From: a bacterium
GTDB lineage: Bacteria; Patescibacteriota; Patescibacteriia; UBA2169
NCBI GenBank assembly: GCA_002687895.1
Contig: NZBL01000003.1
Span: 20,821 to 84,820 of the forward strand
Reading direction: 5' to 3'
DNA: 64,000 bases
Every line of letters begins with the position of its first letter. Position 1 is the stretch's first letter. Position numbers and translations under genes: made by a program. Below are positions 9,800 through 41,568 of the stretch, piece after piece. A model generated the notes under the pieces. That model had not been told where the DNA came from. It saw only the letters and a list, made by a program, of their open reading frames with translations, and searched no databases.

Positions 9800-10268
9800 C
9801 TAATTTGCCTTTTGTGATTTCACTTACTCTATCTATGATCAAAACTCCGTCCATGTGATCAATCTCATGCTGGAGAACGCGAGCAAAAAGATTGGTTGCC
9901 TTCAACTTTTGCTCTTGTCCACTACTATCTGTGTAGCGGACTTTTATTTTTTTATGGCGATTCACCATTCCAAATACTTCTGGAATAGATAAGCATCCTT
10001 CTTCCTCTTCAACCATTTCTTTTGAAGCGGAAAATATTTTTGGATTGATAATTATCAAGTGATCTTCCAAAGATTCATCAGCGTCTTTGCTGATTATGGC
10101 GCAACGAACGCTCTTCCCAACCTGAACAGCGGAAATTCCAATGCCTTTTTCATGCTCCATGGTATCAATCATATCTGAACACAATTTTTGAACACCAGAA
10201 ATATCATCAACTTTAACTGATGCTTCACTTAACTTTGGGTTAGGATAAAATACAAGAGGCAGTTTCAT
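9792..10268 (-). CDS. def: Peptide deformylase
   Basis: 158 aa; motifs GIGISAVQVG, EGCLSIP, QHEIDH. Confidence 0.9.
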   Translation of the reverse strand: MKLPLVFYPNPKLSEASVKVDDISGVQKLCSDMIDTMEHEKGIGISAVQVGKSVRCAIISKDADESLEDHLIIINPKIFSASKEMVEEEEGCLSIPEVFGMVNRHKKIKVRYTDSSGQEQKLKATNLFARVLQHEIDHMDGVLIIDRVSEITKGKLDV

Positions 10269-11944
10269 AATACATTTTCTGGATCGCGATCTATGCTCCA
10301 GTCTTTTGAAAGCTCTTTGAGCATTGATAAATCAGTTTTAGAATTGAATTTTAATACAATTGATAATTTCTTTTTTTTGTCTACAAAAGGGCCTAATATC
10401 TTTACAGAGGAATCTAATTCCTGCTTAAGAATTCTGGCTGCTTGTTCATCATCATAAGGATTATTCTTTTTTCTTCTGTAAGAAAGCTTAATTAAATTTA
10501 CAAATGGGGGATATTGAAGTTCTTTCCTATGCTCTAGCTCATTTTTTATAAATGCATCCACTTCATCATACGCAAACGCGCGCATTATAGAACTATTAGG
10601 AGAATATGACTGCAGAATAAGCTCGCTAAATCCAAGTTCTTGAGCAAGCATTTTCCAATGCTGAAGACGATAATATACTCGTTCCGAGCTTCTGTAGTCT
10701 GGTATGGCAAGCAGTGGTTCTATAGAGCTGAATATTAGCAATCCAAGTGAACCGCGCTTAGAACTCAATTTTAAGCCTTCTAGGATATTAGGAGTTGCAA
10801 CAAGTACATCAAAGTCATTTTTATCAGTGCTAATATTACAATTTTTCAGTGATTTAGTCAATATTTCATATAATGCTTCAACAGACACACCTTTATCAGA
10901 TTTTTCACGCAAGGATAATATGACAACTTTCTTTTGAGCATTGATAGTTTCTTGAACGCGACCCATGGTTTTATCCGCCATAATAGAAAAATCTTTTCTT
11001 GTCATTTCCTGCTCCATATCAATGATTTTGATTTTGAGATTATGACTGCGAGCAGGAGGTAAATTTATATATGATAGAGCCTTGTTTGTGACAATAGAGC
11101 TGGATGAAGTAAAGATTAATTGCGACTTGCTGATGCCTGCGAGCCAGTTAGCCGCAATCCTAGCGTCATATTTTGGATGCTGGTCATACTGCTTAAAATC
11201 ATCGCTTGTGCTTTCAAAGAATATAATAATGCTGTTAGCCTGAATAGGAAGAAATACGCCTTGTCGAGTTGAAAAAATAATATTTGACTTGGCATCTCTT
11301 ATGCTTTTATACGCATTCCAGTACTGTGTCTTATTTAAATCGCTATGAATTGCGGTGCATTTGCCTGAACACAAAATTTGCACAGTAGCTTGCATGGCAT
11401 TAATCATTTCAATGTTCGGAACCAATACAAGCAATTGGCTTTGCGTGTGCTTTGACAGGCGGACAATGAGCCATACAAACGAAGACACGTCGCTGATTGT
11501 GATATGGCTTGCTTGATCTGACAGGGTAGAAGCGAACTGCTCAAGTGCTGGAAGCTGGCTTTTCGCGATTCTGAATTCAGCGTCTGAAGCAAGGGCGTAA
11601 TCTTTAGTAGTAATTTTTTTCTCTGGCGCGTCTGGAACTATCATGCGCGCAACTGATCCGCGAGCTACAAAATAATAATCACTGAATTTTTGAATTAAAT
11701 CCAGCTGGCTGCTGGTTAGGATTGGATTCTCATCCGCGATTGACGCGACAGGACGGGCTCTAAACTTTTTTGATTCTTGAGTTTGGGCCAAAGACAAAAC
11801 AACCCCTGTGGCTTTTTCATGCCTCCAGGGGATTTGTACTAATTGTCCTTCTTTTATCCTGCTAGTAAATTCATCTGGAACAAAGTAGTCAAACACATCA
11901 ACTTTAGAAGGCAGGCGAAGAAGAGGAGTAACTTTTGCTATCAT
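10265..11944 (-). CDS. Primosomal protein N' (PriA)-like with a degenerate helicase Walker A
   Basis: 559 aa; N-terminal 3'-DNA-binding region MIAKVTPLLRLPSKVDVFDYFVP...GQLVQIPWRHEKATGVVL; LVLVPNIEMINAM segment matches PriA motif I-a but no GxTGSGKT Walker A is present. Confidence 0.55.
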   Translation of the reverse strand: MIAKVTPLLRLPSKVDVFDYFVPDEFTSRIKEGQLVQIPWRHEKATGVVLSLAQTQESKKFRARPVASIADENPILTSSQLDLIQKFSDYYFVARGSVARMIVPDAPEKKITTKDYALASDAEFRIAKSQLPALEQFASTLSDQASHITISDVSSFVWLIVRLSKHTQSQLLVLVPNIEMINAMQATVQILCSGKCTAIHSDLNKTQYWNAYKSIRDAKSNIIFSTRQGVFLPIQANSIIIFFESTSDDFKQYDQHPKYDARIAANWLAGISKSQLIFTSSSSIVTNKALSYINLPPARSHNLKIKIIDMEQEMTRKDFSIMADKTMGRVQETINAQKKVVILSLREKSDKGVSVEALYEILTKSLKNCNISTDKNDFDVLVATPNILEGLKLSSKRGSLGLLIFSSIEPLLAIPDYRSSERVYYRLQHWKMLAQELGFSELILQSYSPNSSIMRAFAYDEVDAFIKNELEHRKELQYPPFVNLIKLSYRRKKNNPYDDEQAARILKQELDSSVKILGPFVDKKKKLSIVLKFNSKTDLSMLKELSKDWSIDRDPENVL

Positions 11945-12709: not shown

Positions 12710-14140
12710 TTATTCTATATTATCTCCCAAGATCTCTCCTTCTCCATATGTAACAATCAAATCCAATGGATCGCCAATAGGATGCAGGTCAACTACGCTT
12801 TGAGGCACTTCATGTATATTATCCCATGCATAGCCAAGCTTTTCAAATGCTTCGCCTGAAATGACAGCTCTACGTCTTCCATCTGATATCACATATACAG
12901 CAGAAGATTCAGATGAGGTGATGATGGTTCCGTCTTTAAGCTTAAGTCTGCCAGCGTACCCGTATTGGTTGAGCTCGCCTGGATGAATTGCCAAGGGTTT
13001 TGTGTTTCTAAAATTTAAATCAAGTATTGTGCGATCTATAATTCCTTGCCGCTTTCCATCTTGCACGAAAAATACTGCTCCAGTGGAATTGTCTTGAAGA
13101 AGAGCGCCTGTTGGATATGCAGAGGATAATGTGATGTTGTCTCCTATAATGTATAATTCAAGGTCTTCTTCATTTACCTTTATAACTTCCTCCGGATTAA
13201 ATCCTATTGTGCGAAAAACTTCTTGGGACTCTATTCCGCGAATAGTGTCATCTACTAACAGATAGATGGTTCCATAAGGAGCTTGGAGCAGGGAATAATT
13301 AGCAAACTGAATTGAAGGGCCTATTTCATATGTTTCTAATTCATTTTTGCTGACTTGAATTATGCGCGATGAATCATAGCGAGAATATAGTGCTACACGA
13401 GTCTTAAAAGGCCTGCGATTGCCATTCTGAAGCAGCCACACACCTGGCTCGCCTTTTTCCTGCAAAAGGGTTCCATCAGGATAGTTTCTTACAAAGTACC
13501 TGTTCCATATTCTCCAAAAGTTGAAGTTAGCGCCTATTCTTGATCCGCCTCTGTATGGATTATAGGTATATAATACTGCTGTTGCATTATTAACAGGGGT
13601 AACATTATATCCATCTAAGGTTTTTTTGGTTCTTGCAGGACCCCAGCCAGTAAAAGTTCTGCCTAAGGATTTTAGATCTCTTAGGTATGCTACTCGTACT
13701 TTTTCCGCAAAATCTGATACTTGATTATAAAATCCTTTGAAAGGCGCAAGGCTAGGGTCTGATTTTGAGCATGAATCACAAACCGCAAACCCAGTTGCCC
13801 AGTCTAGTTGATTTTGACTAGGGGATTTGTCTGTAATTAATGATTGCTCCTTTTGAAGCATTGCTAAAATTACTTTTGGGCTTATTTGGTAAATCTGTGA
13901 TTCTTCAAATATAATTTGAGAAGCTGGCTTGCGAACTCCGTCAACAACCTCGGTGAATTGTGCTAAAAAGCTTCCTTTTTGTTCTAAAAACCTTTGTATT
14001 GAGTCCAGTGATAGGGAATTGTAGTCTTCTAACTCAAAGTCAGAAATAATATTATTTTGATTAAAATCAGCAGCACTCACAGATAAGAAAGGTGACAAGC
14101 TAAAGATAAATACAATTATAGACGGCACAATTTTTTTCAT
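12710..14140 (-). CDS. Secreted paralog of 38..2245 (GH73-like N-terminal domain plus GDP[IL]-centred repeats)
   Basis: 476 aa; signal peptide MKKIVPSIIVFIFSLSPFLSVSA; AMLQKEQSLITDKS ... LDWATGF aligns with ORF1; repeats IGPSIQ / IIGDNITLSSAYPTGALLQDNSTGAVFFVQDGKRQ / IGDPLDL. Confidence 0.6.
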   Translation of the reverse strand: MKKIVPSIIVFIFSLSPFLSVSAADFNQNNIISDFELEDYNSLSLDSIQRFLEQKGSFLAQFTEVVDGVRKPASQIIFEESQIYQISPKVILAMLQKEQSLITDKSPSQNQLDWATGFAVCDSCSKSDPSLAPFKGFYNQVSDFAEKVRVAYLRDLKSLGRTFTGWGPARTKKTLDGYNVTPVNNATAVLYTYNPYRGGSRIGANFNFWRIWNRYFVRNYPDGTLLQEKGEPGVWLLQNGNRRPFKTRVALYSRYDSSRIIQVSKNELETYEIGPSIQFANYSLLQAPYGTIYLLVDDTIRGIESQEVFRTIGFNPEEVIKVNEEDLELYIIGDNITLSSAYPTGALLQDNSTGAVFFVQDGKRQGIIDRTILDLNFRNTKPLAIHPGELNQYGYAGRLKLKDGTIITSSESSAVYVISDGRRRAVISGEAFEKLGYAWDNIHEVPQSVVDLHPIGDPLDLIVTYGEGEILGDNIE

Positions 14141-14400: not shown

Positions 14401-14574
14401 GACAGTTCTCCTTTAAAAGGGAGTTCTGCGGACGGTAAAAGTAGGGGGACGTGAATTAAATGTAAAGGAGCCAATATAATTATACCTTAATTACAATCAC
14501 TACGTTAACTAGCTCTTTCCATAGGAAGCTAGAATATTGTGTATTTTTCTGTAAAGGTATATACTAAAATTACC

Positions 14575-14808
14575 ATGCAAACACAAGCACAAGTTACCAT
14601 CAATTTAGATAAAACACTCAAAGAGAAAGTTCAAAAAAAGGCACGAAAAAAGGGGATAACAATTTCCTCTCTTACGAATTCTTTTTTTAAGGATTTCGTG
14701 GAAAATGAGCAAACGCTTGTTGATAGACTTGAGGAGCGCATGTTTGATAGTGTACTACAATCAACAAAAGTAAAAAAAGAACTCAGTAATCTTGGAAAAT
14801 TACTATGA
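14575..14808 (+). CDS. Ribbon-helix-helix antitoxin (RelB/DinJ/ParD-like)
   Basis: MQTQAQVTINLDKTLKEKVQKKARKKGITISSLTNSFF: typical RHH N-terminus; 4-nt ATGA overlap with the downstream toxin-like ORF. Confidence 0.6.
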   Translation: MQTQAQVTINLDKTLKEKVQKKARKKGITISSLTNSFFKDFVENEQTLVDRLEERMFDSVLQSTKVKKELSNLGKLL

Positions 14809-15167
14809 GTAAGATTCTATTAACTAGATCTTTTACTCAGGAATTATCTAAACTACGAATCACAACAAAACAGGAAATTATTACGGTTATTGTTCAATAT
14901 GAAAAAGGTCTGCCAGTGTTGTTGGATTTATACTCACCAGAAAAAAATATAAAAGTACTCAAAGGATATATTCGTCATAGGAGAGGGGTGCGAATAGCTG
15001 TAGTCTTAGAAATTCAGAAGCACGTTTATGTGCCTTTTTTTATAGCAAAAAAGACAAGTAGAGAAGGCTGGAATCTGAGTAAATATTCCGAAATCTATTT
15101 ATCATCAAAGATTAGACGCGTGTATAGGGATATTAAAAATCAGCTATATGAAAAAATAACAATTTAA
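14805..15167 (+). CDS. RelE/ParE-superfamily toxin-like protein
   Basis: 120 aa; KVLKGYIRHRRGVRIAVVLEIQKHVYVPFFIAKK resembles the RelE/ParE core (R-rich beta strands); translationally coupled to the RHH gene. Confidence 0.5.
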   Translation: MSKILLTRSFTQELSKLRITTKQEIITVIVQYEKGLPVLLDLYSPEKNIKVLKGYIRHRRGVRIAVVLEIQKHVYVPFFIAKKTSREGWNLSKYSEIYLSSKIRRVYRDIKNQLYEKITI

Positions 15168-15172
15168 TTAGT

Positions 15173-16393
15173 ATGCAATCTGTAAACATTCTAGGTATAG
15201 AAATATCTGATATAAGTAAATCTGAAGCACTAGCTCGTGTCAGGAATTACCTAAATAGCAAATATCAGCATTACATAGTTACGCCAAATCCAGAAATAGT
15301 TCTAAAAGCTAAAAATGATCAAAATTTGCGCCTAATTCTGAATCATGCTGATCTTGCCTTGCCAGATGGATTTGGATTAAAGATAGCAGCCAGAATTCTA
15401 GGGCAAAAGCTTCATCATAGAATAACAGGAGCTGATTTTATGGAGTCTATTAGCATGCTAGCTGAATCAGAAGACTGGCCTGTTTTTCTATTGGGAGGCA
15501 TGGACGAAAAAATAGCAGAGCAGGCAGCATGGTATTTGCGGTACAAATACAAAAACCTAAAAATCGTTGGTCATGCAAGCGGTGGTGTGGTAGAATTTAA
15601 GCATGCCAAATGGCAGACATCAGACACAAAGCTGATTGATCATATCAATAAATCCCAAGCAAAAATCATATTTGTGGGATTTGGATGCCCAAAGCAGGAA
15701 AAGTGGATTTATCAGAATCTAGATAAGATTCCTTCTGTTAAGGTGGCCATGACAATTGGAGGGGCTTTAGACTTTTTAGCAGGAGAGCGCAAGCGCGCCA
15801 TATATTTATTGCGCAGGTTAGGATTGGAATGGTTTTGGAGAATGATTACTGAATCATCTCACCTAAAGCGTATTTGGAATGCTACAGCAGTTTTTATTTG
15901 GACATCAATTAAGTGGCGAATAAGAATGTTTAAATACCGCGAAAACGCCGCAGCATTCATTGTAAACAGCAAAGATGAAATATTTTTAATAAAGCGGGCA
16001 GACACAAAAGATGATCACTGGCAAATGCCCCAAGGCGGTGTAGATTCCAACGAAACCCCAGAGCAGGCCGCAATACGTGAAGCAAAAGAGGAAACTGGAA
16101 TGCGGAATTTAGAAATAATCGGACTTCATCCAGATCACCATGCTTATGAATTTCCATCTAATTGGCATAAATTCAACAATGGATACAAGGGCCAAAGACA
16201 GAATATTTTTTATTTAAAATATAAGGGTGATAATTCTGATATAAAGCTTGATAATAGGGAAGCAATAGATTATTCATGGGTATATATTGATGATGTGGAA
16301 GACATGGTTTACGAAAGAAGAAAGCAAATGGCCAAGATGGCAGTTGAGGGATATAAACAAATTCAAAATGACAAAGCAGAGCAGCAAAATTAG
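15173..16393 (+). CDS. Fusion protein: WecG/TagA/CpsF-family (GT26) glycosyltransferase N-terminal domain and a C-terminal Nudix hydrolase domain
   Basis: 406 aa single ORF; N-terminus VTPNPEIVLKA...LALPDGFGL...FVGFGCPKQEKW (WecG/TagA hallmarks); C-terminal Nudix box GGVDSNETPEQAAIREAKEETGM. Confidence 0.7.
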   Translation: MQSVNILGIEISDISKSEALARVRNYLNSKYQHYIVTPNPEIVLKAKNDQNLRLILNHADLALPDGFGLKIAARILGQKLHHRITGADFMESISMLAESEDWPVFLLGGMDEKIAEQAAWYLRYKYKNLKIVGHASGGVVEFKHAKWQTSDTKLIDHINKSQAKIIFVGFGCPKQEKWIYQNLDKIPSVKVAMTIGGALDFLAGERKRAIYLLRRLGLEWFWRMITESSHLKRIWNATAVFIWTSIKWRIRMFKYRENAAAFIVNSKDEIFLIKRADTKDDHWQMPQGGVDSNETPEQAAIREAKEETGMRNLEIIGLHPDHHAYEFPSNWHKFNNGYKGQRQNIFYLKYKGDNSDIKLDNREAIDYSWVYIDDVEDMVYERRKQMAKMAVEGYKQIQNDKAEQQN

Positions 16394-17885
16394 AACTAGG
16401 TTCGCGCCAAGCCCCACAGGAGCTCCTCATGTGGGCAATATTCGCACTGCTCTTTTTGTGTGGCTGTTTGCCAGGCATAACAAAGGTAATTTTATTCTGC
16501 GTGTAGAAGACACAGATCAATCCAGAGCAGAACAAGGAAGCATAAAATCAATTCTAGAAGCATTGAATTGGCTTGGCTTGGATATAGACGAAGGCATATT
16601 CAAACAAGGACAAGAAAAAGGCGAACATGGGCCATATACGCAGTCAAATAGATTAAAGACTTATCGCGATCATGCTAAAAAGCTAGTGCAAGCTGGCCAT
16701 GCTTTTTATTGCTTTTGCTCGCAAGAACGCTTAGCTGTAATCAGCGAACTTCAAAAACAGGAAAAAAAGCCGCCAAAATATGATGGACAATGTTTGAATT
16801 TAAAGCCAGAAGACGTAAAAAAATGGCTAGCTGAAAAGCGGAGCGCTGTCATTCGCATGAAAGTTCCACAAGAAGGTGAAACATCTTTCAAAGATACTAT
16901 CAAAGGAAATATTACAGTACAAAACAGCACTATTAATTATCAAGTGCTTTTAAAGTCAGATGGATTTCCAACTTATCACTTGGCTAGCGTGGTTGATGAT
17001 TATTTAATGGAGATCTCGCATGTTTTGCGCGCGGACGAGTGGATTGCTTCAACTCCAAAGCATGTTCTGCTTTACCAATATTTTGGATGGGAGCCACCTG
17101 AATTCATACACCTTCCAATTATTCTCGGCCAAGACAAATCAAAGCTGTCCAAGCGACATGGCGCAATATCAATTTTAGATTATAAAAAGCAAGGATATTT
17201 AGCAGATGCTGTTGTGAACTTTTTAGCATTGCTAGGATGGAATCCAAAAACTAATCAAGAAATTTTATCTCGCGATGAATTGATTGAGCAGTTTGATGTC
17301 TCAAAAATAAATAAAAACAGCCCTGTATTTGAGTTGCAAAAGCTTGATTGGATGAACAAGCAATATATTAAAGAAATGAGTGCTGATAAAATCAGAAAGG
17401 CCTTGCATGATATTGATGGATTAAGCGATGAGGCGCTTGTGTTCTTCAATAAGCAGTATAGATTTGATAAGGCCTTGAATCTTATTAAAGACCGCCTTGA
17501 AAAGTTATCTGATTTTGAGGATAGTGTGCGCTTCCTCTGGGATATGCCTGATTATAAGGCAGATATTTTAGTTGGCAAAGGGTTAGACAAAAAACAAACC
17601 AAGCAAAATCTAGAAAAGGCCTTAGAACTTATAGATAGGAGTGATGATTTGCGCCAAATATTTTTAGACCATTGCGATAAAAGCAATATTAAAAGAGGGG
17701 ACATGCTTTGGCCTTTGCGTGTTGCTATAACAGGCATGGAGCATTCTCCAGAGGTTTTTGCTAGTATTGAGATTATTGGTAAGGATGAGTCAAGGGAAAG
17801 AGTGGAAAAAGCGATTGAGAAGGTATCCTTCAAGATGGCGCAAAGGCCTGGGTTAGAGAAAATCCAGGAGAAAGTATTGTGGTAG
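16368..17885 (+). CDS. gltX: Glutamyl-tRNA synthetase
   Basis: HIGH region RFAPSPTGAPHVGNIRTALF, KMSKS-type KLSKRHG; ATG at 16368 chosen over track start 16287 because the earlier in-frame codons overlap the upstream gene by 107 nt. Confidence 0.85.
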   Translation: MTKQSSKIRTRFAPSPTGAPHVGNIRTALFVWLFARHNKGNFILRVEDTDQSRAEQGSIKSILEALNWLGLDIDEGIFKQGQEKGEHGPYTQSNRLKTYRDHAKKLVQAGHAFYCFCSQERLAVISELQKQEKKPPKYDGQCLNLKPEDVKKWLAEKRSAVIRMKVPQEGETSFKDTIKGNITVQNSTINYQVLLKSDGFPTYHLASVVDDYLMEISHVLRADEWIASTPKHVLLYQYFGWEPPEFIHLPIILGQDKSKLSKRHGAISILDYKKQGYLADAVVNFLALLGWNPKTNQEILSRDELIEQFDVSKINKNSPVFELQKLDWMNKQYIKEMSADKIRKALHDIDGLSDEALVFFNKQYRFDKALNLIKDRLEKLSDFEDSVRFLWDMPDYKADILVGKGLDKKQTKQNLEKALELIDRSDDLRQIFLDHCDKSNIKRGDMLWPLRVAITGMEHSPEVFASIEIIGKDESRERVEKAIEKVSFKMAQRPGLEKIQEKVLW

Positions 17886-18065
17886 TTGCTTATGATAGAG
17901 ATGCATCAATAAGCCCAAAAGAAGGGAAAAATGTAAATGAAATTTGGACATTTGATATAAAATCATCAACATGGACATCAGAACCAGAAGTTCCAAAAAG
18001 AAATTTGGAAGATGTACTAAAAGAAATATCTGAACAATAATAAATTACCAAAATCAAATAAAAAA

Positions 18066-18106
18066 CAAAGCCCGATCTATTCGCTAGACCGGGCTTTGTT
18101 TTTTTG
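18066..18106 (+). terminator. Rho-independent terminator downstream of gltX
   Basis: aaagcccgatctattcgctagaccgggctttgttttttt. Confidence 0.6.
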
Positions 18107-18226
18107 GACACTCCGCTAGAAATCTATCGGATTAGGCAGAGGCGATTACCTCAACCATGGCACCATATACTACAAATAATATATTTCGTCAATATTTTGT
18201 ATTTATGCTATAATATGCGTACAAAT

Positions 18227-19468
18227 ATGCAAAACAAAGCAAAAACAAAAATAATAGGTTTTTGGGTAGTTTTGGGATTGATGATTATATCAAACCCTGG
18301 TTTTGCTATTGCGCAAGAAGATGGGGCAACAGGAAAAGATCCTGAAATACAGGATATTGCGCAGCAGCTTAAAACCCAAAGAGACGCAATAGATGAAGTG
18401 CGGAATAAGATAGACCAATATGAATCCAAGATTCAGGCTAAGCGGAATGAGGCTTTGACCATAAAAAATCAGCTTGGATCATTAAGTGATCAAGTTGATC
18501 AGACAAAATTGAAATTAGAGCTTAAGAGGCAGGAAATAACCGAGATAAATCTTTTAATAACTGAAACTGAAAAAAGAATATCAGGAAAGGAAATTGAAAT
18601 AAGCCAGCAAAAGGAAAAAATAGCAGAATTCATCCGCTTGCTGTATCAGCGCCAGCAAAAAAGCCCAGTTGAAATACTTTTGGCTAATGATGCTTTTTCA
18701 GAATTCTTTGATGCTGCGCAATATTTAGAAGCAATTGAGGAAGATCTGGAAGTAATACTTAAAAAAATGAAAGCTGTGCAGGAAAAACTGCAGGAAGAGC
18801 ATACTGGATTAGAATCGCAGCGCGAGGAATTAAAAGAGCTTAAGGCCCAGCTGACAGGCACGCAGGTAGTTTTAGAAGAAAAAGTAACAGCTAAGAATGT
18901 CATTTTAGAGGCAACACAAGCTGATGAATCAAAATTCCAAGCATTATTAAAACAAGTTCGCGCGGAACAAGCGCAGATTAATAATGATATTATCGGCTTA
19001 GAGCGCCAGCTTAGAGCTCGCCTAGAAGCACAAGGCGATAAGACATTAGCAGAGCTTTCTGGGCAAGGATTTATCTGGCCAGTTCCAAACAGGACCGTGA
19101 CCGCGACATTCCATGATCCTGATTATCCTTTTAGAAGATATTTTGAGCATCCAGCAATAGATATACGCTCAAAGCAGGGAACACCAATTAAAGCTGTTGG
19201 TTCTGGATATGTTGCGCGAACCCGAGATGGAGGATTGGGGTATAGCTATATTTCCGTGATTCACGCGGACGGATTAAGCAGTGTTTATGGGCATGTATCC
19301 TGCATTCTTGTGCAAGAAGATGAATATGTTGTGCAAGGGCAGGTAATAGGGTGCAGTGGCGCAACTCCAGGTACTCCAGGGGCTGGTCGGCTGACTACGG
19401 GGCCGCATCTGCATTTAGAGATTAGGCTTAATGGTATTCCAGTTAACCCAATAGGATATTTGCAATAG
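18227..19468 (+). CDS. M23 (LytM) family peptidase with N-terminal signal/TM and long coiled coil (EnvC-like), catalytic HxxxD and HxH motifs intact
   Basis: Coiled-coil-rich N-terminal half; HPAIDIRSKQGTPIKAVGSGYV ... GPHLHLEIRLNG; start is at ATG 18227 or 18215 (tataat at 18209-18214). Confidence 0.7.
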   Translation: MQNKAKTKIIGFWVVLGLMIISNPGFAIAQEDGATGKDPEIQDIAQQLKTQRDAIDEVRNKIDQYESKIQAKRNEALTIKNQLGSLSDQVDQTKLKLELKRQEITEINLLITETEKRISGKEIEISQQKEKIAEFIRLLYQRQQKSPVEILLANDAFSEFFDAAQYLEAIEEDLEVILKKMKAVQEKLQEEHTGLESQREELKELKAQLTGTQVVLEEKVTAKNVILEATQADESKFQALLKQVRAEQAQINNDIIGLERQLRARLEAQGDKTLAELSGQGFIWPVPNRTVTATFHDPDYPFRRYFEHPAIDIRSKQGTPIKAVGSGYVARTRDGGLGYSYISVIHADGLSSVYGHVSCILVQEDEYVVQGQVIGCSGATPGTPGAGRLTTGPHLHLEIRLNGIPVNPIGYLQ

Positions 19469-28269: not shown

Positions 28270-29319
28270 TTAAGAAGAAAGCACCATGCTTCCAATTGAT
28301 TCAACTTCGCGCAATAAATTAGAATCATCCAATAAAATTCCTGTTCCCCGAACAACTGTTGTTAAAGGATCATCTACCACATGAACAGGCATTTGCAGCT
28401 CTTTTGATATTAAGGAATCAAATCCTTTCAAAAGCGCTCCTCCTCCGGAAAGCAGAATTCCGCTTTCATACAGATCTCCTATAAGCTCGGCAGGCGCGTT
28501 TTCTACTGTTGTGCGGACCGCGTCTACAATTACTCCAACAGGCCTTTTTATTGCTTCTCTTATTTGCTCATCTGTAATTTCAAACTCCTTAGGCAGGCCA
28601 GTTAGCATGTTTCTGCCTTTTACTTTCATCTCGTGCGCTTCATCGCTAGCTACAACAGATCCAATCTTAATTTTGATTTCCTCTGCTGACTTTGAGCCTA
28701 TTGTAATGTTAAAATTCTCTCTTATATAATCCTGTATCGCGCTGTCAAATTCATGTCCTGCTGTTTTAAGGGAATTATAAGAAACAATTCCAGACAAGGA
28801 AATAACCGCGATTGAGGTATTGCCTCCTCCTATTTCCACCACCATTCTGCCGTATGAATCCTGCAGATTCAGCCTGGCTCCTATGGCTGTTGCAACTGGC
28901 TCGTCTATAAGGTGAACTTCGCGCGCGCCTGCGTTGGTAATTGCGTCCTGAACTGCTTTGCGCTCTACCTCTGTAATATCCAAAGGAATGCTTACAATTG
29001 TGCGCGGGCGAGGAGCTATGGTAAACGATCCTCTGTGTATTTTTTCTATGCAGTGCTTTATCAGTTTTTCTGATACTTCAAAATCTGAAATCACTCCATT
29101 AACAATAGGGCCGACCACAGATATATGCGGAGGTGTTTTGCCCATCATTTTTTTCGCGTCCACTCCAACAGCAACCAGTTGATCGCTCCTTGTATTGATT
29201 GCTACAATGCTTGGCTCATTAATAACAATACCCTTATCTTTTACGTAAAATATTGAATTTGAGGTGCCAAGATCAATTCCAATATCTTTTGAAAGGCTTC
29301 CAAATATATTTTTTAACAT
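28270..29319 (-). CDS. mreB: Actin-like rod shape protein MreB
   Basis: 349 aa; IGIDLGTSNS, DIGGGNTSIAV actin-fold motifs. Confidence 0.9.
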   Translation of the reverse strand: MLKNIFGSLSKDIGIDLGTSNSIFYVKDKGIVINEPSIVAINTRSDQLVAVGVDAKKMMGKTPPHISVVGPIVNGVISDFEVSEKLIKHCIEKIHRGSFTIAPRPRTIVSIPLDITEVERKAVQDAITNAGAREVHLIDEPVATAIGARLNLQDSYGRMVVEIGGGNTSIAVISLSGIVSYNSLKTAGHEFDSAIQDYIRENFNITIGSKSAEEIKIKIGSVVASDEAHEMKVKGRNMLTGLPKEFEITDEQIREAIKRPVGVIVDAVRTTVENAPAELIGDLYESGILLSGGGALLKGFDSLISKELQMPVHVVDDPLTTVVRGTGILLDDSNLLREVESIGSMVLSS

Positions 29320-34368: not shown

Positions 34369-34395
34369 AACGTTCCATACGGTGTGGAACGTTAA
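34367..34395 (-). terminator. Perfect palindrome hairpin at the 3' end of the second mreB
   Basis: ttaacgttcca-tacggtg-tggaacgttaa overlapping the stop codon; A-run on plus gives U-run on minus. Confidence 0.5.
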
Positions 34396-35405
34396 CTCGC
34401 GACTAAAATACTGCGCTTATATGATTCAAGATTCTCCAAGGCAACTCCAGTGCCTTTTGCAACGCATAACAATGCCTCATCAGCAGTATAGGCTGGAACA
34501 CCAGTTGCCTGCGCAATTAAGCGATCCATATTTCTGAGCAAAGATGATCCGCCTGATAAAACTATGCCTTTATCAATCACGTCTGCAGATAATTCCGGAG
34601 GCGTGCTTTGCAGTACTGTTTTAACAGATGAAATAATTCCTTCTAGTTCAGCTTGAATAGCTTCTGTTACGTCGTCTGATGAGACAGTAACTGTGCGCGG
34701 TAATCCAGATACCATGTCTCGGCCCCGTACTTCTGTTGACATCTTTTTCTGGAGATATAAGGCAGAGCCAATGTTGATTTTAATTTCTTCCGCGCTTCGC
34801 TCGCCTATTGCTAAATTATATTTTTTACGTATATGCTCGCTAATCGCGTTGTCAAACCTATTGCCTCCAATCCTGACTGAATTATTTGCAACAATTCCGC
34901 CTAAAGAAATAACTGCCATTTCACTTGTGCCGCCGCCCATGTCTATTATCATATGCCCGCTTGCTGATCCAATTGGAATGTTAGCGCCGATTGCTGCGGC
35001 TATTGGCTCTTTTATAATATAAGCTGCTTTTGCGCCACCAGCGATTGTAGCATCAATGACTGCGCGCCTTTCTGTTGAAGTAATTCCAGCTGGAACAGCT
35101 ACCATGACTTCTGGCCTGAATAACCTAACTGATCCAACTGCCTTGTTGATGAAATACTTTAGCATTGCTTCTGTTGTTTTGTAATCAGCAATCACACCCT
35201 CGCGCAAAGGGCGTGACGCCACAATAGTATCAGGTGTTCTTCCAAGCATTTCTTTGGCATCATCTCCAACTGCAAGCACTTGCTTGTCATTCAAAGAAAC
35301 CGCAACAACAGACGGTTCATTCAAAACAATGCCTTTTCCAGGCAAATGAACCAATGTGTTTGCTGTTCCAAGATCTATACCAATTTTATTTACAAATATA
35401 CTCAT
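34392..35405 (-). CDS. Second actin-like MreB/Mbl paralog
   Basis: 337 aa; IGIDLGTANT, DMGGGTSEMAV; about 45 percent identical by eye to the mreB at 28270..29319. Confidence 0.85.
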   Translation of the reverse strand: MSIFVNKIGIDLGTANTLVHLPGKGIVLNEPSVVAVSLNDKQVLAVGDDAKEMLGRTPDTIVASRPLREGVIADYKTTEAMLKYFINKAVGSVRLFRPEVMVAVPAGITSTERRAVIDATIAGGAKAAYIIKEPIAAAIGANIPIGSASGHMIIDMGGGTSEMAVISLGGIVANNSVRIGGNRFDNAISEHIRKKYNLAIGERSAEEIKINIGSALYLQKKMSTEVRGRDMVSGLPRTVTVSSDDVTEAIQAELEGIISSVKTVLQSTPPELSADVIDKGIVLSGGSSLLRNMDRLIAQATGVPAYTADEALLCVAKGTGVALENLESYKRSILVAS

Positions 35406-35489: not shown

Positions 35490-37421
35490 TTACTTGGATT
35501 GTATAAGAACCTCGCGATCCTCCCCTAAATCCCAGGTTCCAGTAATTTGATTTCCTCCTTTTTTGTCAAAAATATCGCTTGGAATTATGCTGTCAATTTT
35601 AAATGGCAACTCAATATCAATTACTAAATCATGCGCACGAGTTCCTGCCTGTTTTTGAATATATAATCTATATCCCTCTTCTAAAATCTGCTGTGTTAAT
35701 TCTTGCGGTAAAATATATGTAAATGACAAAGTCTCCGTATCCAAAGGCTCAATAGAGATGAACGTGCCAAAAACTGTTTTATTATGCTCATCCGTGATAG
35801 CTAGCTCTTCCTCATTCCCCTCTGCGCTTACAAATATTGAGCCTTGGGGAACATAAATCCTAGTATAAGTTCTATACCGAGTTGTTTTCCAGTCAAAATC
35901 AGCTGTATGTTCATATGTAATTGAGGCCGTAGCTTGGAGCTGTATATCTTCTAATGATTCAGATTCTTCACCTACTGTCTCTATGGAATATGAAATTGAA
36001 CGGTTGATTGCTGGATCAGATTTCAAAGACCCTAAGTTAGCATCAACTATATGAAGATAATCGCCTTTTGCGCCTAAAATTCTTCCATCCCACTTAAAGC
36101 CCGCAACAATGTCACCTACTTTTTCATCGCTAAAGTAGAACATTATTTGGCGCTCGCTTAAAGCATCAAAAACCAAAGGAGCAAAATCGCGCATTTGATC
36201 TAATGATAATGAGAATAATTTTTCTTTTAACTGCTGTGCCACATCATCAATAATCTGCTTTCTGTTGTAAATGTTAACGCCCTCTTCTTTAAAGCCAAGC
36301 TCAACATGGTATGCTAAAGTATCAATAAGATTATCTGCTGTAAATTCTTTTTCATCAACATATACTGGACCTACCACTTGCAGAAGATCCTCTATTAACT
36401 CTGGAGTAAAAGCGATCACCCCGTCAAAATTGCGCACTGGGCCTCTTTCATCTTTATAAAATTGAATCGCGTTTTGGGCAGTTGTAGGAAAATCCGGATC
36501 CCAGTTCACGTCGCGGAAAAACCATTGCGACTGCTTTATATATTTTTGCAAAGGCAAAGGCGGAACTTTTGTATTAAATGCTTTTGCTGGCTCATCAAGA
36601 TTATATACATTGTCAGTAATAAATGATGAGATTTCACCGTTCCTGACCTTTAGCACTCCATATGTGCCAATGAATCCGCCTGTTGGCCGAAGTTCTGTAT
36701 TGTTCTGTAAAAGCAAAAGATAGGTCTTTTCGCGAGGATGGCCAAGCACTTGCGGCGCAACTGCAATCCAGGGCTGTATTTGGCTGAACAATGACTGTGC
36801 TTGATATAATTTTGATGTAAGATTATTAACTTGTGAATTTATGATTGGAATCTTTGTCTGTGCTTGCGCGTCTTTTAAAAATGATAAAGATAATATTGTT
36901 TGATTATTCACGCGCTCCCAAAGTTCGCTTGAATCAGCTAAAGAAGCAAGCAAGGTTGATTTGTCTTGTACTGTGAGCTCATCAAATGCACCAAACTCTG
37001 TTTCAGATAAAATTGGAATTGTTTTTGCCCAGTCAATTACCAGTGCGCCAGACGCGATTGAAACCTTTGCGGCCGCGAGCAATGATCTGCTAGCTTTTAC
37101 TTCTCCAGATATTCCAGGAATTAAAGTAATTGGATACAAGCGGTTAATAGTGCTTTCCAGCTCCTTGATATTTGTATTTACGCTATTTAAAATTTCTTTG
37201 GATTGATCCCAATCCCTGTTTACTAATGATTCTTGCAAAGGCTGAACTAATTTGGATATTTGGCGCGCGTTTCTATACGCGTCTATTGCTTGATATCCGT
37301 AAAAAATAATTATTAAAGCAGCAACTATAATTGTAGACCACATTATATGGTCCTTTTGGGGCAATGCTTTTATAAAAGCATCTTTCCATGTGCTTTGAAA
37401 TGGATTTTTTAACTCACTCAT
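35490..37421 (-). CDS. Large N-terminally membrane-anchored extracytoplasmic protein of unknown function (possibly DUF4012-like)
   Basis: 643 aa; single TM IMWSTIIVAALIIIFYGY then a long soluble region; heads the glycosyltransferase cluster; the family call is tentative. Confidence 0.4.
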   Translation of the reverse strand: MSELKNPFQSTWKDAFIKALPQKDHIMWSTIIVAALIIIFYGYQAIDAYRNARQISKLVQPLQESLVNRDWDQSKEILNSVNTNIKELESTINRLYPITLIPGISGEVKASRSLLAAAKVSIASGALVIDWAKTIPILSETEFGAFDELTVQDKSTLLASLADSSELWERVNNQTILSLSFLKDAQAQTKIPIINSQVNNLTSKLYQAQSLFSQIQPWIAVAPQVLGHPREKTYLLLLQNNTELRPTGGFIGTYGVLKVRNGEISSFITDNVYNLDEPAKAFNTKVPPLPLQKYIKQSQWFFRDVNWDPDFPTTAQNAIQFYKDERGPVRNFDGVIAFTPELIEDLLQVVGPVYVDEKEFTADNLIDTLAYHVELGFKEEGVNIYNRKQIIDDVAQQLKEKLFSLSLDQMRDFAPLVFDALSERQIMFYFSDEKVGDIVAGFKWDGRILGAKGDYLHIVDANLGSLKSDPAINRSISYSIETVGEESESLEDIQLQATASITYEHTADFDWKTTRYRTYTRIYVPQGSIFVSAEGNEEELAITDEHNKTVFGTFISIEPLDTETLSFTYILPQELTQQILEEGYRLYIQKQAGTRAHDLVIDIELPFKIDSIIPSDIFDKKGGNQITGTWDLGEDREVLIQSK

Positions 37422-38265
37422 ATTTTTCGGGGTCCCCAGAAACTGCCACAGGCATTTCTGGGGTAAAATTTAGTCCCCACTTTTTAAAATATTTTACAGC
37501 GCTGATTAAATGTATCCAGCTCATTTTATTGAACAAAGCCATGTAAAATTTTCCAACGTTTGATGCACGACCATGATAATGAATGATTTCTGTGTCAGCT
37601 AAATACCAAACTTCATATCCTGCTTGCAAGACTCTCCTGCACCAGTCAGTGTCCTCCAAAAACATAAAATACCTTTCATCCATTAGCCCGATCTTTTGCA
37701 CAGCGCTTTTGCGCACAATCATGCAAGAACCCTGCACCCAGTCTACTTTGCGATTTTCCTTATGATCCCAATTTGTCATTAAATATTTGTGGATGGCGCG
37801 GCGCGCGAATTGGAATCTTGATAAAGGAGTTCTGCGGTAAACTAGTACTTGGGGCGTTGGAAACTCATATACAAAATATTGCAATGATCCATCTGGTGAA
37901 AGTAAGCGCGGTCCCGCGATTCCAGCTTTTGGATTATTATCCATGAATTGAACCATTCGTTTAAAAGCATTATCCCATACAGCGATATCTGAATTCATTA
38001 CAAGATAATATCTTCCACGCGCTTTTTTAATGCCCACATTGTTTCCTGCTGCAAATCCAACATTTGCTGTTGATCTAATCAATTGCACATTATCAAAGCG
38101 AGGACATAACTTTTGCTCTACATATTCCGCGCTTCCATCTATTGAAGCATTATCAACCACAATAATCTCATAATCTAAATCCAAAGTATGTTCAACAATT
38201 CCTTTGATGCATGGAAGCAGAAAATCCTTAGTGTTGTAATTGAGAATTATTATTGAGAGATCCAT
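37414..38265 (-). CDS. Family 2 glycosyltransferase
   Basis: LSIIILNYNTKDFL...VVDNASIDGS, DxD-like region. Confidence 0.75.
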   Translation of the reverse strand: MDLSIIILNYNTKDFLLPCIKGIVEHTLDLDYEIIVVDNASIDGSAEYVEQKLCPRFDNVQLIRSTANVGFAAGNNVGIKKARGRYYLVMNSDIAVWDNAFKRMVQFMDNNPKAGIAGPRLLSPDGSLQYFVYEFPTPQVLVYRRTPLSRFQFARRAIHKYLMTNWDHKENRKVDWVQGSCMIVRKSAVQKIGLMDERYFMFLEDTDWCRRVLQAGYEVWYLADTEIIHYHGRASNVGKFYMALFNKMSWIHLISAVKYFKKWGLNFTPEMPVAVSGDPEKYE

Positions 38266-39121
38266 ATGCTTTCAAATTCTGTGTTTCAAATATTAGAATA
38301 TATATAAACTTTAAAAATTCGTATATGACAATCAGCGGTATTCGCCACCAGTCACGCATAGATAAGTTCTTACGTAGCATCATTAAATGATTACGAATAC
38401 TTTCTTGCTTTACTTTATCTGCGCGCATAGAACGATCTCCATGCTGCACTGTTCTATCATGTATTGCAACTGCACTTGGCTCCAACACTGTTTTCCAGCC
38501 AGCACGATTCAATCGCCATGAGAGATCAGCATCTTCTTTATACATCCAAAATCTCTCATCATATATGCCATATTCATCTTTGACGCTTTGCAAGGCTTTT
38601 AATCTATATAGTACGCAAGCCCCAGATCCTCCCCAAACTTGCTTTATATGGCTATTTTGAGGCTTATCTGGCTTGTTTTCATCTATATTTACAACCCTGC
38701 CCCATGCACGCATTGATAGGCCTAACCCATCAATTATGCCAGAATTTGTATCATCTGGCAATGATCTATAAAGCTTTGGAATAACTGCGGCAATGCGCTC
38801 GTTTGACTCTATTGTTTGCATTATCTTTGCAAGACAATTTTTTTGCAGTTCAACATCATGGTTTAAGACAAGAATATATGGGGATGTGCATATCTCAAAT
38901 CCCTGGTTATGCGCTTTGGCAAATCCTTTGTTCTCCTTATTCTCTATAATATCCGCATTTGAATAGTTTTGTCTAATAAAATCAATGGTTTTGTCGCTTG
39001 ACGCATTGTCTATTACAAGTACAGAATACTCAATTTCTGTCTGATTTTGAATACCTAAAAACAGCCTTGGAAGGTGCTGTTTGCTATTCCATGTGGTAAT
39101 TTGGATTTGTACTTTTTTCAT
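38228..39121 (-). CDS. Family 2 glycosyltransferase
   Basis: ITTWNSKQHLPRLFLGIQNQT...LVIDNASSDKT. Confidence 0.75.
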   Translation of the reverse strand: MKKVQIQITTWNSKQHLPRLFLGIQNQTEIEYSVLVIDNASSDKTIDFIRQNYSNADIIENKENKGFAKAHNQGFEICTSPYILVLNHDVELQKNCLAKIMQTIESNERIAAVIPKLYRSLPDDTNSGIIDGLGLSMRAWGRVVNIDENKPDKPQNSHIKQVWGGSGACVLYRLKALQSVKDEYGIYDERFWMYKEDADLSWRLNRAGWKTVLEPSAVAIHDRTVQHGDRSMRADKVKQESIRNHLMMLRKNLSMRDWWRIPLIVIYEFLKFIYILIFETQNLKAYGSLNNNSQLQH

Positions 39122-39178
39122 AAATGTTGTATTATATACATATTAGTATTTATAAAAATAAAAAGAAAGGAGACTAAT

Positions 39179-39364
39179 ATGTTAAACAAAAAGTTACTTA
39201 CAGACATTGTAACAACTTTTGTTATAACAGCAATTGTAAGTGTTGTTGTAACCTATGTCTGGACCCTGATTGATGATGGCGCAGATGCTATCTCATTAAG
39301 TAGCTCTCTGCAGTTTGCAGCTGTTCTGGGTATTACTTTGCCTATTGTTAAGGCTAAGACATAG
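39179..39364 (+). CDS. Small membrane protein (61 aa)
   Basis: SD aaaggag before ATG 39179; MLNKKLLTDIVTTFVITAIVSVVVTYVWTLIDD... Confidence 0.4.
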   Translation: MLNKKLLTDIVTTFVITAIVSVVVTYVWTLIDDGADAISLSSSLQFAAVLGITLPIVKAKT

Positions 39365-39424
39365 CATATTTCTAAACTCATTAAAAACAGTCTGCTGTAT
39401 GCAGTCTGTTTTTAATTAGCAACT

Positions 39425-39811
39425 ATGGAAAATCTAAAAAAAGTTGAATGGATTTTGCGCATTGCAGTGTCTGGTGAATTCTTGGGACATGGCATATTTG
39501 CCATACAAGGCAAGGCCGCATGGATTAATTGGATTGAGCAATTACTAAATGTGGATGCGTCTGTTGCCACTCAACTACTGCTCTTAATTGGAATTATTGA
39601 TATAGGAATAGCCATATTCGCGCTTGTTCAGCCAATACGAGCAATATTGCTTTGGGCCGCGATTTGGGGATTTTGGACTGCTCTTTTAAGGCCTATTATG
39701 GGCGATCCAATTTGGGATTTTGTAGAGCGGTTTGCCAACATCGGCGCGCCATTAGCGCTCTTATATGTACGCGGTGTGCCAAGAAGTTTAAAGCAATGGC
39801 TAAAGGTATGA
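39425..39811 (+). CDS. Small polytopic membrane protein (DoxX-like, tentative)
   Basis: 128 aa, 3-4 predicted TMs. Confidence 0.45.
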   Translation: MENLKKVEWILRIAVSGEFLGHGIFAIQGKAAWINWIEQLLNVDASVATQLLLLIGIIDIGIAIFALVQPIRAILLWAAIWGFWTALLRPIMGDPIWDFVERFANIGAPLALLYVRGVPRSLKQWLKV

Positions 39812-39854
39812 TAAATATCACTGCTTTTCGATGAGCATATTATTTATATTCTTA

Positions 39855-41303
39855 TCAATTTCTCTTGTCAACCAGTCCAGACATTAACATAACCACACCA
39901 ATACCAAGTGGATGATTTAAGTATGGACTTACTCCGTGCGTTAATACTACAGCAACAAGGCCAATTATTCCTCCAAGTATTAAATAATTTTCACGATTTG
40001 ACCTCCACCCAAACTTTGCAATCATCCATAAAAGATATAAATAAAATCCAACTCCTAAAAGACCAATCTTAAGCCAAATTTCAAGCCAGCCAAGTTCAAA
40101 CGCTGTTGTTGTGTATAATCCATCTGGATTATTTTTTAGTACTCTTGGATCTTGGGACGCGTATGTAACCGAAGTTCCAAATCCAGATCCATATATTGGA
40201 TGATTTTTGATTGATGACAAGAGCGGCCTAATCTGTGAATAGCGGGATGACACAGCTGCTTCACCGCTGAATTTTGCTGCCCTGTCTTTTAGCAAATCAG
40301 CGCTCATTGTGCCTTTTGGAATTGGAAACATTGCTACTCCAACTGTCAATCCAATGCTTATCACAATAAGCCCAACAAATATTGATCCAAAACTTGAAAC
40401 CTGTTTAATCTTTTCTTTATTAAAAACTAGGATTACAAGCATTACTACCAAGGACGCTATTCCTGCCAGCCAAAAGCTCCTAGAAAATGACATGCTGATT
40501 GCTGATATCACAACAATAATCAATACCACAATCCATGAAACATATTTCTTTTGCTTTAATTTAATAAAGCCATACAGCATTCCAAGCAACGCGAATAATC
40601 CAAATAACAGCCAAATCTGGGACTGCATAAAAATACGGGAAGTCAAAATATTTGGATCAATATTTGTAATTTCTCCTAACCTAGAATACCTAGACCAATC
40701 ATATAATCTATCCTGCAATCCAAACAGCTCATGGCTGAAAATATAAAATAAAGCAATTGTTTTTACAGACAGCCACGCGATCGCGCTGATTACCACAATG
40801 CTGACTTCGCGCGCAATATGCTTTGATCTTGATAAAACATCATATATAGGAAATATCAATGCAAAGTACATGTAATTGTTCACATCACTGAATATTGATC
40901 CTAATCCATTGCCCCTTAATATTCCCCAAATAGTGCCCCAGATAATTATGATCGCAAGCCCGAGATATGGCTTAAATAATTTTGAATGTAAAAATGCGAT
41001 CTTGCGATCTTTTAAAGCATGAGCAAGCCACACTAATATGACAATAAGCCACAAAGTCATGCGGATTGTGACGTCAAACCCAGCAATATCCAATATAAAC
41101 ATCTTGCCTAAAGAGCCAATAATCAGCTCCCCAAAAATCAGCATTACTCCATATTCCAAGCGATAAACAGTTAAAAAAATCGCAGACGTGGCAATAAACC
41201 CAAAAATCCACGGACTTGCATCCACGTTAACATATGAAAGATATGAGAGTAACTCCGCAATCAAGACAATAATCAATGTATTTAAAATCAGGCCTTTTTT
41301 CAT
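39855..41303 (-). CDS. Polytopic membrane protein, O-antigen polymerase/ligase (Wzy/WaaL)-like
   Basis: 482 aa, at least 10 TMs with a large loop; located inside the glycosyltransferase cluster. Confidence 0.45.
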   Translation of the reverse strand: MKKGLILNTLIIVLIAELLSYLSYVNVDASPWIFGFIATSAIFLTVYRLEYGVMLIFGELIIGSLGKMFILDIAGFDVTIRMTLWLIVILVWLAHALKDRKIAFLHSKLFKPYLGLAIIIIWGTIWGILRGNGLGSIFSDVNNYMYFALIFPIYDVLSRSKHIAREVSIVVISAIAWLSVKTIALFYIFSHELFGLQDRLYDWSRYSRLGEITNIDPNILTSRIFMQSQIWLLFGLFALLGMLYGFIKLKQKKYVSWIVVLIIVVISAISMSFSRSFWLAGIASLVVMLVILVFNKEKIKQVSSFGSIFVGLIVISIGLTVGVAMFPIPKGTMSADLLKDRAAKFSGEAAVSSRYSQIRPLLSSIKNHPIYGSGFGTSVTYASQDPRVLKNNPDGLYTTTAFELGWLEIWLKIGLLGVGFYLYLLWMIAKFGWRSNRENYLILGGIIGLVAVVLTHGVSPYLNHPLGIGVVMLMSGLVDKRN

Positions 41304-41368
41304 AGCCCTAATATACTAGCTAGAAACAAAGCAAAAGTAAATGCAGGGCCCCTAGTTTCGAGACCCTA

Positions 41369-41545: not shown

Positions 41546-41568
41546 TGTTTACCTCCCCATGGTTTACG

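Follow-up and report, generated by a model that had tools for sequence, protein, structure and literature searches.

Why does a glycosyltransferase of the TagA family carry a Nudix hydrolase at its C terminus? The question is raised by a single open reading frame (ORF) on contig NZBL01000003.1 of a Patescibacteria genome assembly (GCA_002687895.1), from which we analyzed a stretch of 64,000 nucleotides (nt), here called the window (G+C content, 37.9%). The ORF encodes 406 amino acids (aa), and both the ORF listing and direct reading of the DNA revealed no internal stop codon. Pfam detected Glyco_tran_WecG (PF03808) at aa 59 to 234 (E value of 8.4e-52; 175.8 bits at a cutoff of 27.4) and NUDIX (PF00293) at aa 255 to 385 (E value of 2.9e-22; 79.5 bits at a cutoff of 21.1). 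A preliminary description of the locus had proposed one 406-aa ORF with a GT26 domain and a complete C-terminal Nudix box, and this was borne out by the ORF listing and by Pfam. A six-frame regular-expression search of the 64-kb window found no second Nudix box besides the one at aa 288 to 310. The features of the ORF and of its surroundings are listed in Table 1.

A trivial answer would be an artefact, in which a missed stop codon or a frameshift in the window assembly makes two genes appear as one, and separate tagA and nudix genes do occur in Uhrbacteria. A protein search of 5.8 billion sequences yielded 1,917 matches, and the best 120 of them were checked for both Pfam domains. Both were present in 119 of these 120; the remaining protein has 266 aa and is encoded on a contig of 1.2 kb. 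Most of the 120 had approximately 390 to 440 aa and matched the query with a coverage of 94 to 100% and an identity of 37 to 70%; the named sources of fusion homologues were metagenome-assembled genomes (MAGs) of Patescibacteria, Parcubacteria or Magasanikbacteria. At least 173 fusion proteins of about 400 aa were collected from independent Patescibacteria assemblies, with identities down to approximately 33%. Furthermore, both domains were found in a single tblastn frame at 23 distinct loci in species-representative genomes. The same fusion is thus present in related genomes, a point that the preliminary description had left to be checked.

We also measured the junction, as the spacing between the motif EWxxR of the TagA tail and the N-terminal motif (Y)RxN of the Nudix domain, which was scorable in 141 of the 173 fusion proteins. 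The spacing was 37 residues in 111 of the 141 and 36 to 38 residues in 131, and the length differences among the fusion proteins fell within the Nudix domain rather than at the junction. Since the same in-frame junction recurs across many independent assemblies, in 173 proteins of 33 to 70% identity, a frameshift artefact in the window is very unlikely. In addition, a 100%-identical partial copy of the fusion (P0001) is located on a separate contig of the Joint Genome Institute (JGI). An AlphaFold2 model of the fusion, built on a 46-sequence family alignment, had a mean predicted local distance difference test score (pLDDT) of 94.2 and a predicted template modeling score (pTM) of 0.86, and it was confident across the junction as well (pLDDT of 85 to 98 over aa 220 to 260). 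We therefore give the artefact practically no weight and conclude that the TagA-Nudix fusion is genuine, ancient and widely conserved in ultra-small Patescibacteria.

The identity of the glycosyltransferase (GT) half was addressed at the levels of fold, family and active site. Residues 1 to 235 aligned to TagA of Thermoanaerobacter italicus (PDB 7MPK; 152 bits), with the C-terminal appendage included. A Foldseek comparison of the model with the PDB gave template modeling (TM) scores, normalised to the target, of 0.92 to 0.94 and root mean square deviations (rmsd) of 2.5 to 2.9 Å for the TagA chains 7MPK, 5WB4 and 5WFG, which places the GT half of the model in the TagA (GT-E) fold. TIGR00696 scored 123.9 bits at a cutoff of 69, in line with membership in the GT26 (WecB/TagA/CpsF) family. 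The equivalog model for TarA/TagA (NF041710; 157.3 bits versus 350), the WecG model (NF002980; 106.8 versus 323) and the EpsA equivalog (102.8 versus 500) were not reached. Because these scores lie below the TarA, WecG and EpsA cutoffs, no donor sugar was assigned, and the transfer of N-acetylmannosamine (ManNAc) from UDP-ManNAc onto undecaprenyl pyrophosphate-linked N-acetylglucosamine (undecaprenyl-PP-GlcNAc) is our best guess for the reaction. Thus, the GT26 assignment of the preliminary description stood, with PF03808 and TIGR00696 both above their cutoffs. Among the window ORFs scanned, we saw no gene for a UDP-GlcNAc 2-epimerase and no WecA/TagO gene.

In T. italicus TagA, Asp65 is the catalytic base, Thr37, Asn39, Arg83, Gln167 and Glu168 line the conserved pocket, and Arg214, Arg221 and Arg224 are active-site residues contributed by the appendage, which is required for activity and for membrane association (PMC6493773). 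The equivalents in the window protein are T37, N39, D65, R83, Q175, E176, R223, H230 and R233. Seven of them (T37, N39, D65, Q175, E176, R223 and R233) were invariant in all 46 fusion homologues aligned, R83 was conserved in 40, and R208, E219 and W220 of the appendage were invariant too. The region around the uracil-stacking Tyr137 was variable and was modeled with lower confidence (pLDDT of 70 to 86). The catalytic Asp65, the pocket residues and the tail arginines 214 and 224 are therefore shared between the fusion and the structurally characterized TagA/TarA enzyme (PDB 5WB4, 5WFG, 7MPK and 7N41). Unlike T. italicus TagA, the fusion carries a Nudix domain of 150 aa straight after the last helix, and Arg221 of T. 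italicus TagA is replaced by His in the window protein. By homology, the N-terminal 250 residues would represent a TagA/TarA-like inverting GT26 enzyme at the cytoplasmic face of the membrane, adding a hexosamine from a UDP-sugar to undecaprenyl-PP-GlcNAc and releasing UDP. The modeled appendage helices (aa 211 to 215, 219 to 226 and 228 to 251) would bind the membrane and complete the active site. In the model, the last of them leads directly into the first Nudix strand, with no flexible linker predicted between the halves.

The Nudix half was compared with characterized Nudix enzymes in the same way. Its best NCBIfam models were four RNA pyrophosphohydrolase (RppH) models, of which the top ones scored just under their cutoffs (NF001938, 106 bits versus 116; NF001936, 102 bits versus 118), and the GDP-mannose mannosyl hydrolase model NF011963 scored 17.6 bits versus a cutoff of 146. 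The nearest solved structures by sequence were the lupin diadenosine tetraphosphate (Ap4A) hydrolase 1F3Y (77 bits; E value of 1.2e-20) and then Escherichia coli RppH (34 bits). Indeed, 1F3Y and RppH were also the leading fold matches in Foldseek (TM scores of 0.75 to 0.80; rmsd of 2.1 to 2.7 Å), and the match to GDP-mannose mannosyl hydrolase was weaker (TM scores of 0.59 to 0.64). The Nudix box was well conserved in the 46 fusion homologues, with E303 and E307 present in all 46, G288 in 45, R302 in 43, and E294 and E306 in 41 each; the preliminary description had named loss of these residues on alignment as a point on which its reading could fail.

E. coli RppH contacts the 5' phosphates through R8, N10, R27, Q37, Y77, Q95 and K140, binds its metals through E53, E57, Q37 and E120, and places the base between R27 and V137/F139, together with S32 (PMC7144940). 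In the E. coli RppH sequence used for this comparison and for the Nudix tree below, residues 7 to 121 were confirmed by the PDB alignment, and residues 137 to 140 were supported by the residue names in PMC7144940 only. R8, N10, Q37, E53, E57, Y77, Q95 and E120 correspond to R256, N258, Q287, E303, E307, Y325, Q341 and E363 of the fusion, each kept in 42 to 46 of the 46 homologues. In a second alignment, the metal- and phosphate-site equivalents were kept in 22 to 24 of 24 sequences, and the position of K140 was occupied by Arg in 22 of 24. The equivalents of E56, Q97 and W126 were also conserved in the fusion family, and R275, the equivalent of R27, was kept in 33 of 46 homologues. We conclude that the Nudix half is a pyrophosphohydrolase of the RppH/NudH/Ap4A hydrolase type, with the catalytic and polyphosphate-binding residues intact. 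The Nudix box and the phosphate and metal residues are thus shared with E. coli RppH/NudH (YgdP) and lupin Ap4A hydrolase. Unlike RppH, the Nudix domain of the fusion is joined to a GT predicted to be membrane associated, has S32, V137 and F139 replaced, and scores below the equivalog level. Proteins with two or three Nudix domains in tandem (P0125, 457 aa; P0126, 293 aa; P0192, 331 aa) were also among the nearest relatives of the Nudix half.

Whether the halves depend on each other can be judged from the genomic slot that the fusion occupies. In the window, an upstream block on the minus strand, comprising Fmt, Def, PriA, a LigB/Memo-like protein and the conserved 476-aa protein U476, is followed by two small ORFs, the fusion, gltX and an M23 peptidase gene. 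The order fusion-gltX-M23 was found again at identities of 33 to 70%, including in Magasanikbacteria and mostly behind the same upstream block, with a gap of 1 to 60 nt between the fusion and gltX in relatives. Several other arrangements were found in this slot. First, a TagA of approximately 247 aa without Nudix domain directly precedes gltX-M23 at six loci (L024, L031, L032, L040, L053 and L081), and the same order with inserts was found at two more (L035 and L048). At 26 Patescibacteria loci, tblastn (1e-5) and a relaxed Nudix-box search detected no separate nudix gene within approximately 6 kb of the TagA-only genes. Sampled TagA proteins of Firmicutes, Saccharibacteria, Peribacteria/Peregrinibacteria, Gracilibacteria and Berkelbacteria also had no Nudix domain. 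Second, in Uhrbacteria the two halves are split. At locus L090, a 75-nt spacer with stop codons in the tagA frame lies between a 251-aa tagA and a 145-aa nudix, with gltX and M23 after them, and L088 and L089 have the same order with a 26-nt spacer. The orthologous domains thus exist as separate adjacent genes at the same locus, as expected of a "Rosetta stone" fusion.

Third, at loci L085 to L087 the slot contains a 295- to 338-aa fusion of a LigT domain (PF02834) to the orthologous Nudix domain, followed by gltX-M23 and preceded by the same upstream block; no TagA was detected within these loci. This LigT-Nudix protein has a 2H phosphoesterase as N-terminal partner where the other fusion has TagA, and its Nudix domain has 32 to 39% identity, belongs to a sister clade and has the same active site. 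The LigT-Nudix family is small (nine clusters at 90% identity), and its members are named by NCBI only as RNA 2',3'-cyclic phosphodiesterase. In this protein, a putative enzyme of RNA 3' ends would be paired with an RppH-type enzyme of 5' ends. A free ligT gene was found directly upstream of tagA-nudix at six loci (L002, L007, L047, L014, L017 and L010) and directly upstream of tagA alone at five (L034, L084, L037, L036 and L033).

In a neighbor-joining tree of Nudix domains, the split and LigT-fused forms clustered with the TagA-fused ones, and the split Nudix nested among the fused. This group was located within a wider set of free RppH-type proteins, which includes an annotated proteobacterial RppH. 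Fused and unfused forms were interleaved on long branches in the neighbor-joining trees of both the GT26 and the Nudix domains, which are too crude for counting gains and losses. Importantly, the Nudix active-site residues in the alignment were identical in the TagA-fused, LigT-fused, split and solo groups. Four standalone Nudix relatives (P0122, P0123, P0124 and P0138) on contigs of 650 to 1,700 bp may be truncated fusions and were left out, so that the evidence for a free Nudix rests on the Uhrbacteria genes, read in context, only.

Since TagA occurs without Nudix and Nudix without TagA, and since the active site does not depend on the partner, we infer that the Nudix domain is autonomous and that neither half needs the other. 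We think it rather probable that two neighboring genes of an operon were fused, which would tether an autonomous RppH/NudH-type hydrolase to a membrane-associated TagA-like enzyme. The simplest history would start from an ancestral operon (ligT)-tagA-nudix-gltX-M23, in which neighbors were fused and single genes were lost by lineage. The Nudix module would then be the lineage's own RppH/NudH-type enzyme. Most probably, it would cleave the pyrophosphate bond of 5'-polyphosphorylated nucleotides, with dinucleoside polyphosphates and di- or triphosphorylated RNA 5' ends as substrates and with nucleoside di- and triphosphates hydrolyzed more slowly. The fusion would chiefly fix this enzyme at a 1:1 stoichiometry at the membrane beside TagA, and local hydrolysis of the inhibitory product UDP would be a possible side benefit rather than the reason for the domain.

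Several observations weigh against this interpretation. The base-cleft residues S32, V137 and F139 of E. coli RppH are not conserved, the fusion family having mostly H, H and V at these positions, and its true substrate may therefore not be that of RppH. The residue equivalent to Arg221, which is proposed to stabilise the UDP leaving group in T. italicus TagA (PMC6493773), is Arg in 44 of the 46 fusion homologues and His230 in the window protein (codon 230; 15860 to 15862), and this replacement may alter its GT activity. The TagA-only and LigT-Nudix calls describe loci rather than whole-genome gene inventories. Furthermore, tagA and nudix are adjacent or fused over a deep divergence, and the constant, rigid junction together with the pTM of the model hints at a fixed interdomain geometry and at possible functional coupling. 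A coupled role is also chemically plausible: TagA is subject to competitive inhibition by UDP (PMC6493773), and E. coli RppH hydrolyzes nucleoside diphosphates including UDP, weakly at pH 7 to 7.5 and almost completely at pH 8 (PMC7144940).

The last three of these points favor an explanation by coupled catalysis, in which the Nudix domain would cleave the UDP released by the GT to UMP and phosphate or would trim the pool of UDP-sugar donor. This would relieve the product inhibition of TagA and return UMP to salvage in a nucleotide-auxotrophic cell, and selection for channeling would explain the covalent link. Yet Firmicutes and several Patescibacteria of the same synteny have a TagA that works without a Nudix partner, and the orthologous Nudix is kept in the LigT fusion with no TagA in the locus. 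Active-site residues tuned to the TagA product were not seen either, as the TagA-fused and the other forms have the same ones. The known case closest to donor editing is Gmm (WcaH/NudD) of the colanic acid cluster, a Nudix hydrolase tied to polysaccharide genes; Gmm is a free protein acting on a GDP-sugar, and with the scores and fold matches given above the Nudix half bears no likeness to such nucleotide-sugar hydrolases. The adjacency of tagA and nudix has to be read with caution, because the block also keeps gltX, M23, PriA, Def and Fmt together, and a conserved order of functionally unrelated genes makes adjacency weak evidence of a shared function. We regard coupled catalysis as possible but not probable. 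The preliminary description had suggested coupled hydrolysis of the by-product or editing of the donor pool; this was not supported by the RppH-type Nudix domain, its poor Gmm score and the separate occurrence of the halves. The comparative evidence as a whole argues against an obligatory mechanistic link between them.

If the partner of the Nudix domain is not a supplier of substrate, it could be a regulator. According to this explanation, TagA would activate or localize the RppH-type domain, and membrane-associated dinucleoside tetraphosphate (Np4N) hydrolysis or RNA decapping would track the flux of cell wall precursors. A precedent by analogy is E. coli RppH, which forms an activating complex with DapF, an enzyme of the peptidoglycan/lysine pathway (PMC6061855, PMC6061791); like the fusion, it pairs an RppH-type Nudix with a cell envelope precursor enzyme, and the RppH-DapF structures 6D1Q and 5YGU were among the fold matches. 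The alternative partner LigT, a member of the RNA 2',3'-cyclic phosphodiesterase family, points to RNA-end chemistry, and the tail of TagA binds the membrane (PMC6493773). However, the RppH-DapF pairing is noncovalent and its partner is an RppH-stimulating epimerase, whereas the fusion is covalent and its partner has the GT-E/GT26 fold, which is unrelated to that of DapF. Moreover, the split and TagA-only lineages show that the pairing is dispensable. A regulatory pairing thus appears unlikely. Taken more generally, that the covalent link is functional, whether through destruction of UDP in situ by a self-clearing GT of nucleotide-scavenging cells or, as the covalent equivalent of the RppH-DapF pair, through Np4N or RNA 5'-end turnover coupled to the synthesis of a wall glycopolymer, seems rather doubtful to us.

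A further candidate substrate is the lipid carrier. Some Nudix enzymes hydrolyze prenyl diphosphates, and the domain would be held at the membrane beside an enzyme that binds undecaprenyl-PP-GlcNAc. It could act on undecaprenyl-PP-sugar or undecaprenyl-PP, thereby recycling the carrier or proofreading dead-end intermediates of TagA. Against this, the full nucleotide-polyphosphate-binding set of RppH is kept, the nearest characterized relatives are Ap4A hydrolase and RppH, and the same domain is also found free and fused to the soluble LigT. We consider action on lipid pyrophosphates very improbable and retain the tethering of an autonomous RppH/NudH-type hydrolase as our interpretation.

The fusion is a conserved, undescribed combination of two well-characterized families, of which its halves are members or near members. 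In the literature searched, no description of a TagA/WecG-Nudix combination was found, and among the PDB fold matches obtained with Foldseek there was no solved structure spanning both domains. The preliminary description, which did not recognise the domain pair as a described architecture, thus held for the literature searched; in the sequence databases the fusion is nevertheless common, under a glycosyltransferase-only name ("WecB/TagA/CpsF family glycosyltransferase" or just a TagA enzyme name). NadM-Nudix, a bacterial two-domain NMN adenylyltransferase/ADP-ribose pyrophosphatase (2R5W, 2QJO), likewise has a C-terminal Nudix domain on a nucleotide-using enzyme and was a weak whole-chain fold match (Foldseek ranks 33 and 45). 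It differs in its Nudix subfamily (ADP-ribose pyrophosphatase) and in its partner, and with an rmsd of 17 to 18 Å there is no common arrangement.

The fusion is a near-core gene of many Patescibacteria, and under the current names metabolic reconstructions miss its putative RppH/NudH-type activity. Should the Nudix half be the RppH or Ap4A hydrolase of this lineage, an RNA 5'-end or alarmone hydrolase would be tethered to a membrane enzyme. A functional covalent link would be an undescribed tie between envelope assembly and the metabolism of nucleotides or RNA ends, in a phylum whose biochemistry has hardly been studied by experiment. Since both halves come from well-studied families, the finding does not imply anything categorically new. 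The slot, with its split, fused, TagA-only and LigT-Nudix forms, is a natural experiment on gene fusion in compact genomes, and its variety is a warning against inferring biochemical coupling from every fusion.

Table 1. Coordinates of the fusion ORF, its parts and its neighbors in the window, and of LigT-Nudix genes at other loci
Feature	Position	Strand	Remarks
TagA-like GT26 + RppH/NudH-type Nudix fusion ORF	15173..16393	+	406 aa, ATG start
GT26 catalytic core	15173..15784 (aa 1-204)	+	Pocket residues T37, N39, D65, R83, Q175, E176
TagA C-terminal appendage	15785..15925 (aa 205-251)	+	Alignment to full-length TagA residues 196-226
Nudix domain, RppH/NudH/Ap4A hydrolase type	15926..16372 (aa 252-400)	+	Assigned by PF00293, RppH models and fold
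Nudix box GGVDSNETPEQAAIREAKEETGM	16034..16102 (aa 288-310)	+	Complete box, GX5EX7REUXEEXGU
gltX (glutamyl-tRNA synthetase)	16368..17885	+	PF00749 and PF19269; conserved downstream neighbor
Terminator-like palindromic hairpin	18060..18104		20 pairs, flanked by A-run and T-run; consensus scan; between gltX and M23
M23 peptidase gene	18104..19468	+	PF01551; third member of the conserved order
U476, conserved 476-aa protein	12710..14140	-	Divergent; no Pfam match; upstream anchor of the slot
LigT-Nudix gene, L085	7001-7984 of L085		Proteins of the LigT-Nudix family: P0133, P0137, P0268-P0274
LigT-Nudix gene, L086	7001-8017 of L086		See L085
LigT-Nudix gene, L087	7001-7888 of L087		See L085

The 3' end of the fusion and the start of gltX probably overlap by 26 nt: the gltX ORF as mechanically listed begins with TTG at 16287, and its homologues align from the ATG at 16368. 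Downstream of gltX, the hairpin is a possible bidirectional intrinsic terminator, which would mark the end of a fusion-gltX transcription unit. Promoter-like sites between 14100 and 19600 were not above chance (14 found versus 18.3 expected), and the hairpin was the only notable element in this region. The divergent protein U476 has a hydrophobic N-terminal segment and is found in the same position relative to the slot, at 37 to 83% identity, across Patescibacteria loci.

The two small ORFs upstream of the fusion (14539 to 15167, plus strand) encode 89 aa, with subthreshold matches to DUF6364 and CopG antitoxin, and 120 aa without Pfam match. The pair stops 5 nt short of the fusion, and the related locus L001 has no genes at this position. 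They may represent a toxin-antitoxin-like insertion. In the upstream block, the PriA homologue (10265 to 11944, minus strand; 559 aa) matched the 3'-DNA-binding domain, and its match to the helicase C-terminal domain was weak and below the cutoff. Relatives of 563 to 622 aa showed the same pattern of domain matches.

Some record titles disagreed with the gene order of the loci. L005, L006, L009, L012, L015 to L018 and others come from MAGs titled "uncultured Gammaproteobacteria bacterium," yet they have the Patescibacteria gene order. These loci share neighbors of 57 to 83% identity, and the same applies to L053 ("Acutalibacteraceae") and L032 ("Binatia"). The titles or the binning of these records look wrong, and the titles were treated as unreliable.

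Two further groups of envelope-related genes were observed in the window. A glycan gene cluster of the Wzx type (35490 to 46494, minus strand), located some 20 kb away from the TagA-like gene, encodes a DUF4012 protein, four GT2 enzymes, one GT1/GT4 enzyme, a 482-aa protein without Pfam match and a Polysacc_synt flippase. This cluster could use a lipid-linked primer made by the TagA-like enzyme. Finally, the 64 kb of this small genome contain two MreB paralogues (28270 to 29319 and 34392 to 35405, both on the minus strand), the first of which is followed by MreC, a 171-aa ORF without Pfam match, and PBP2.

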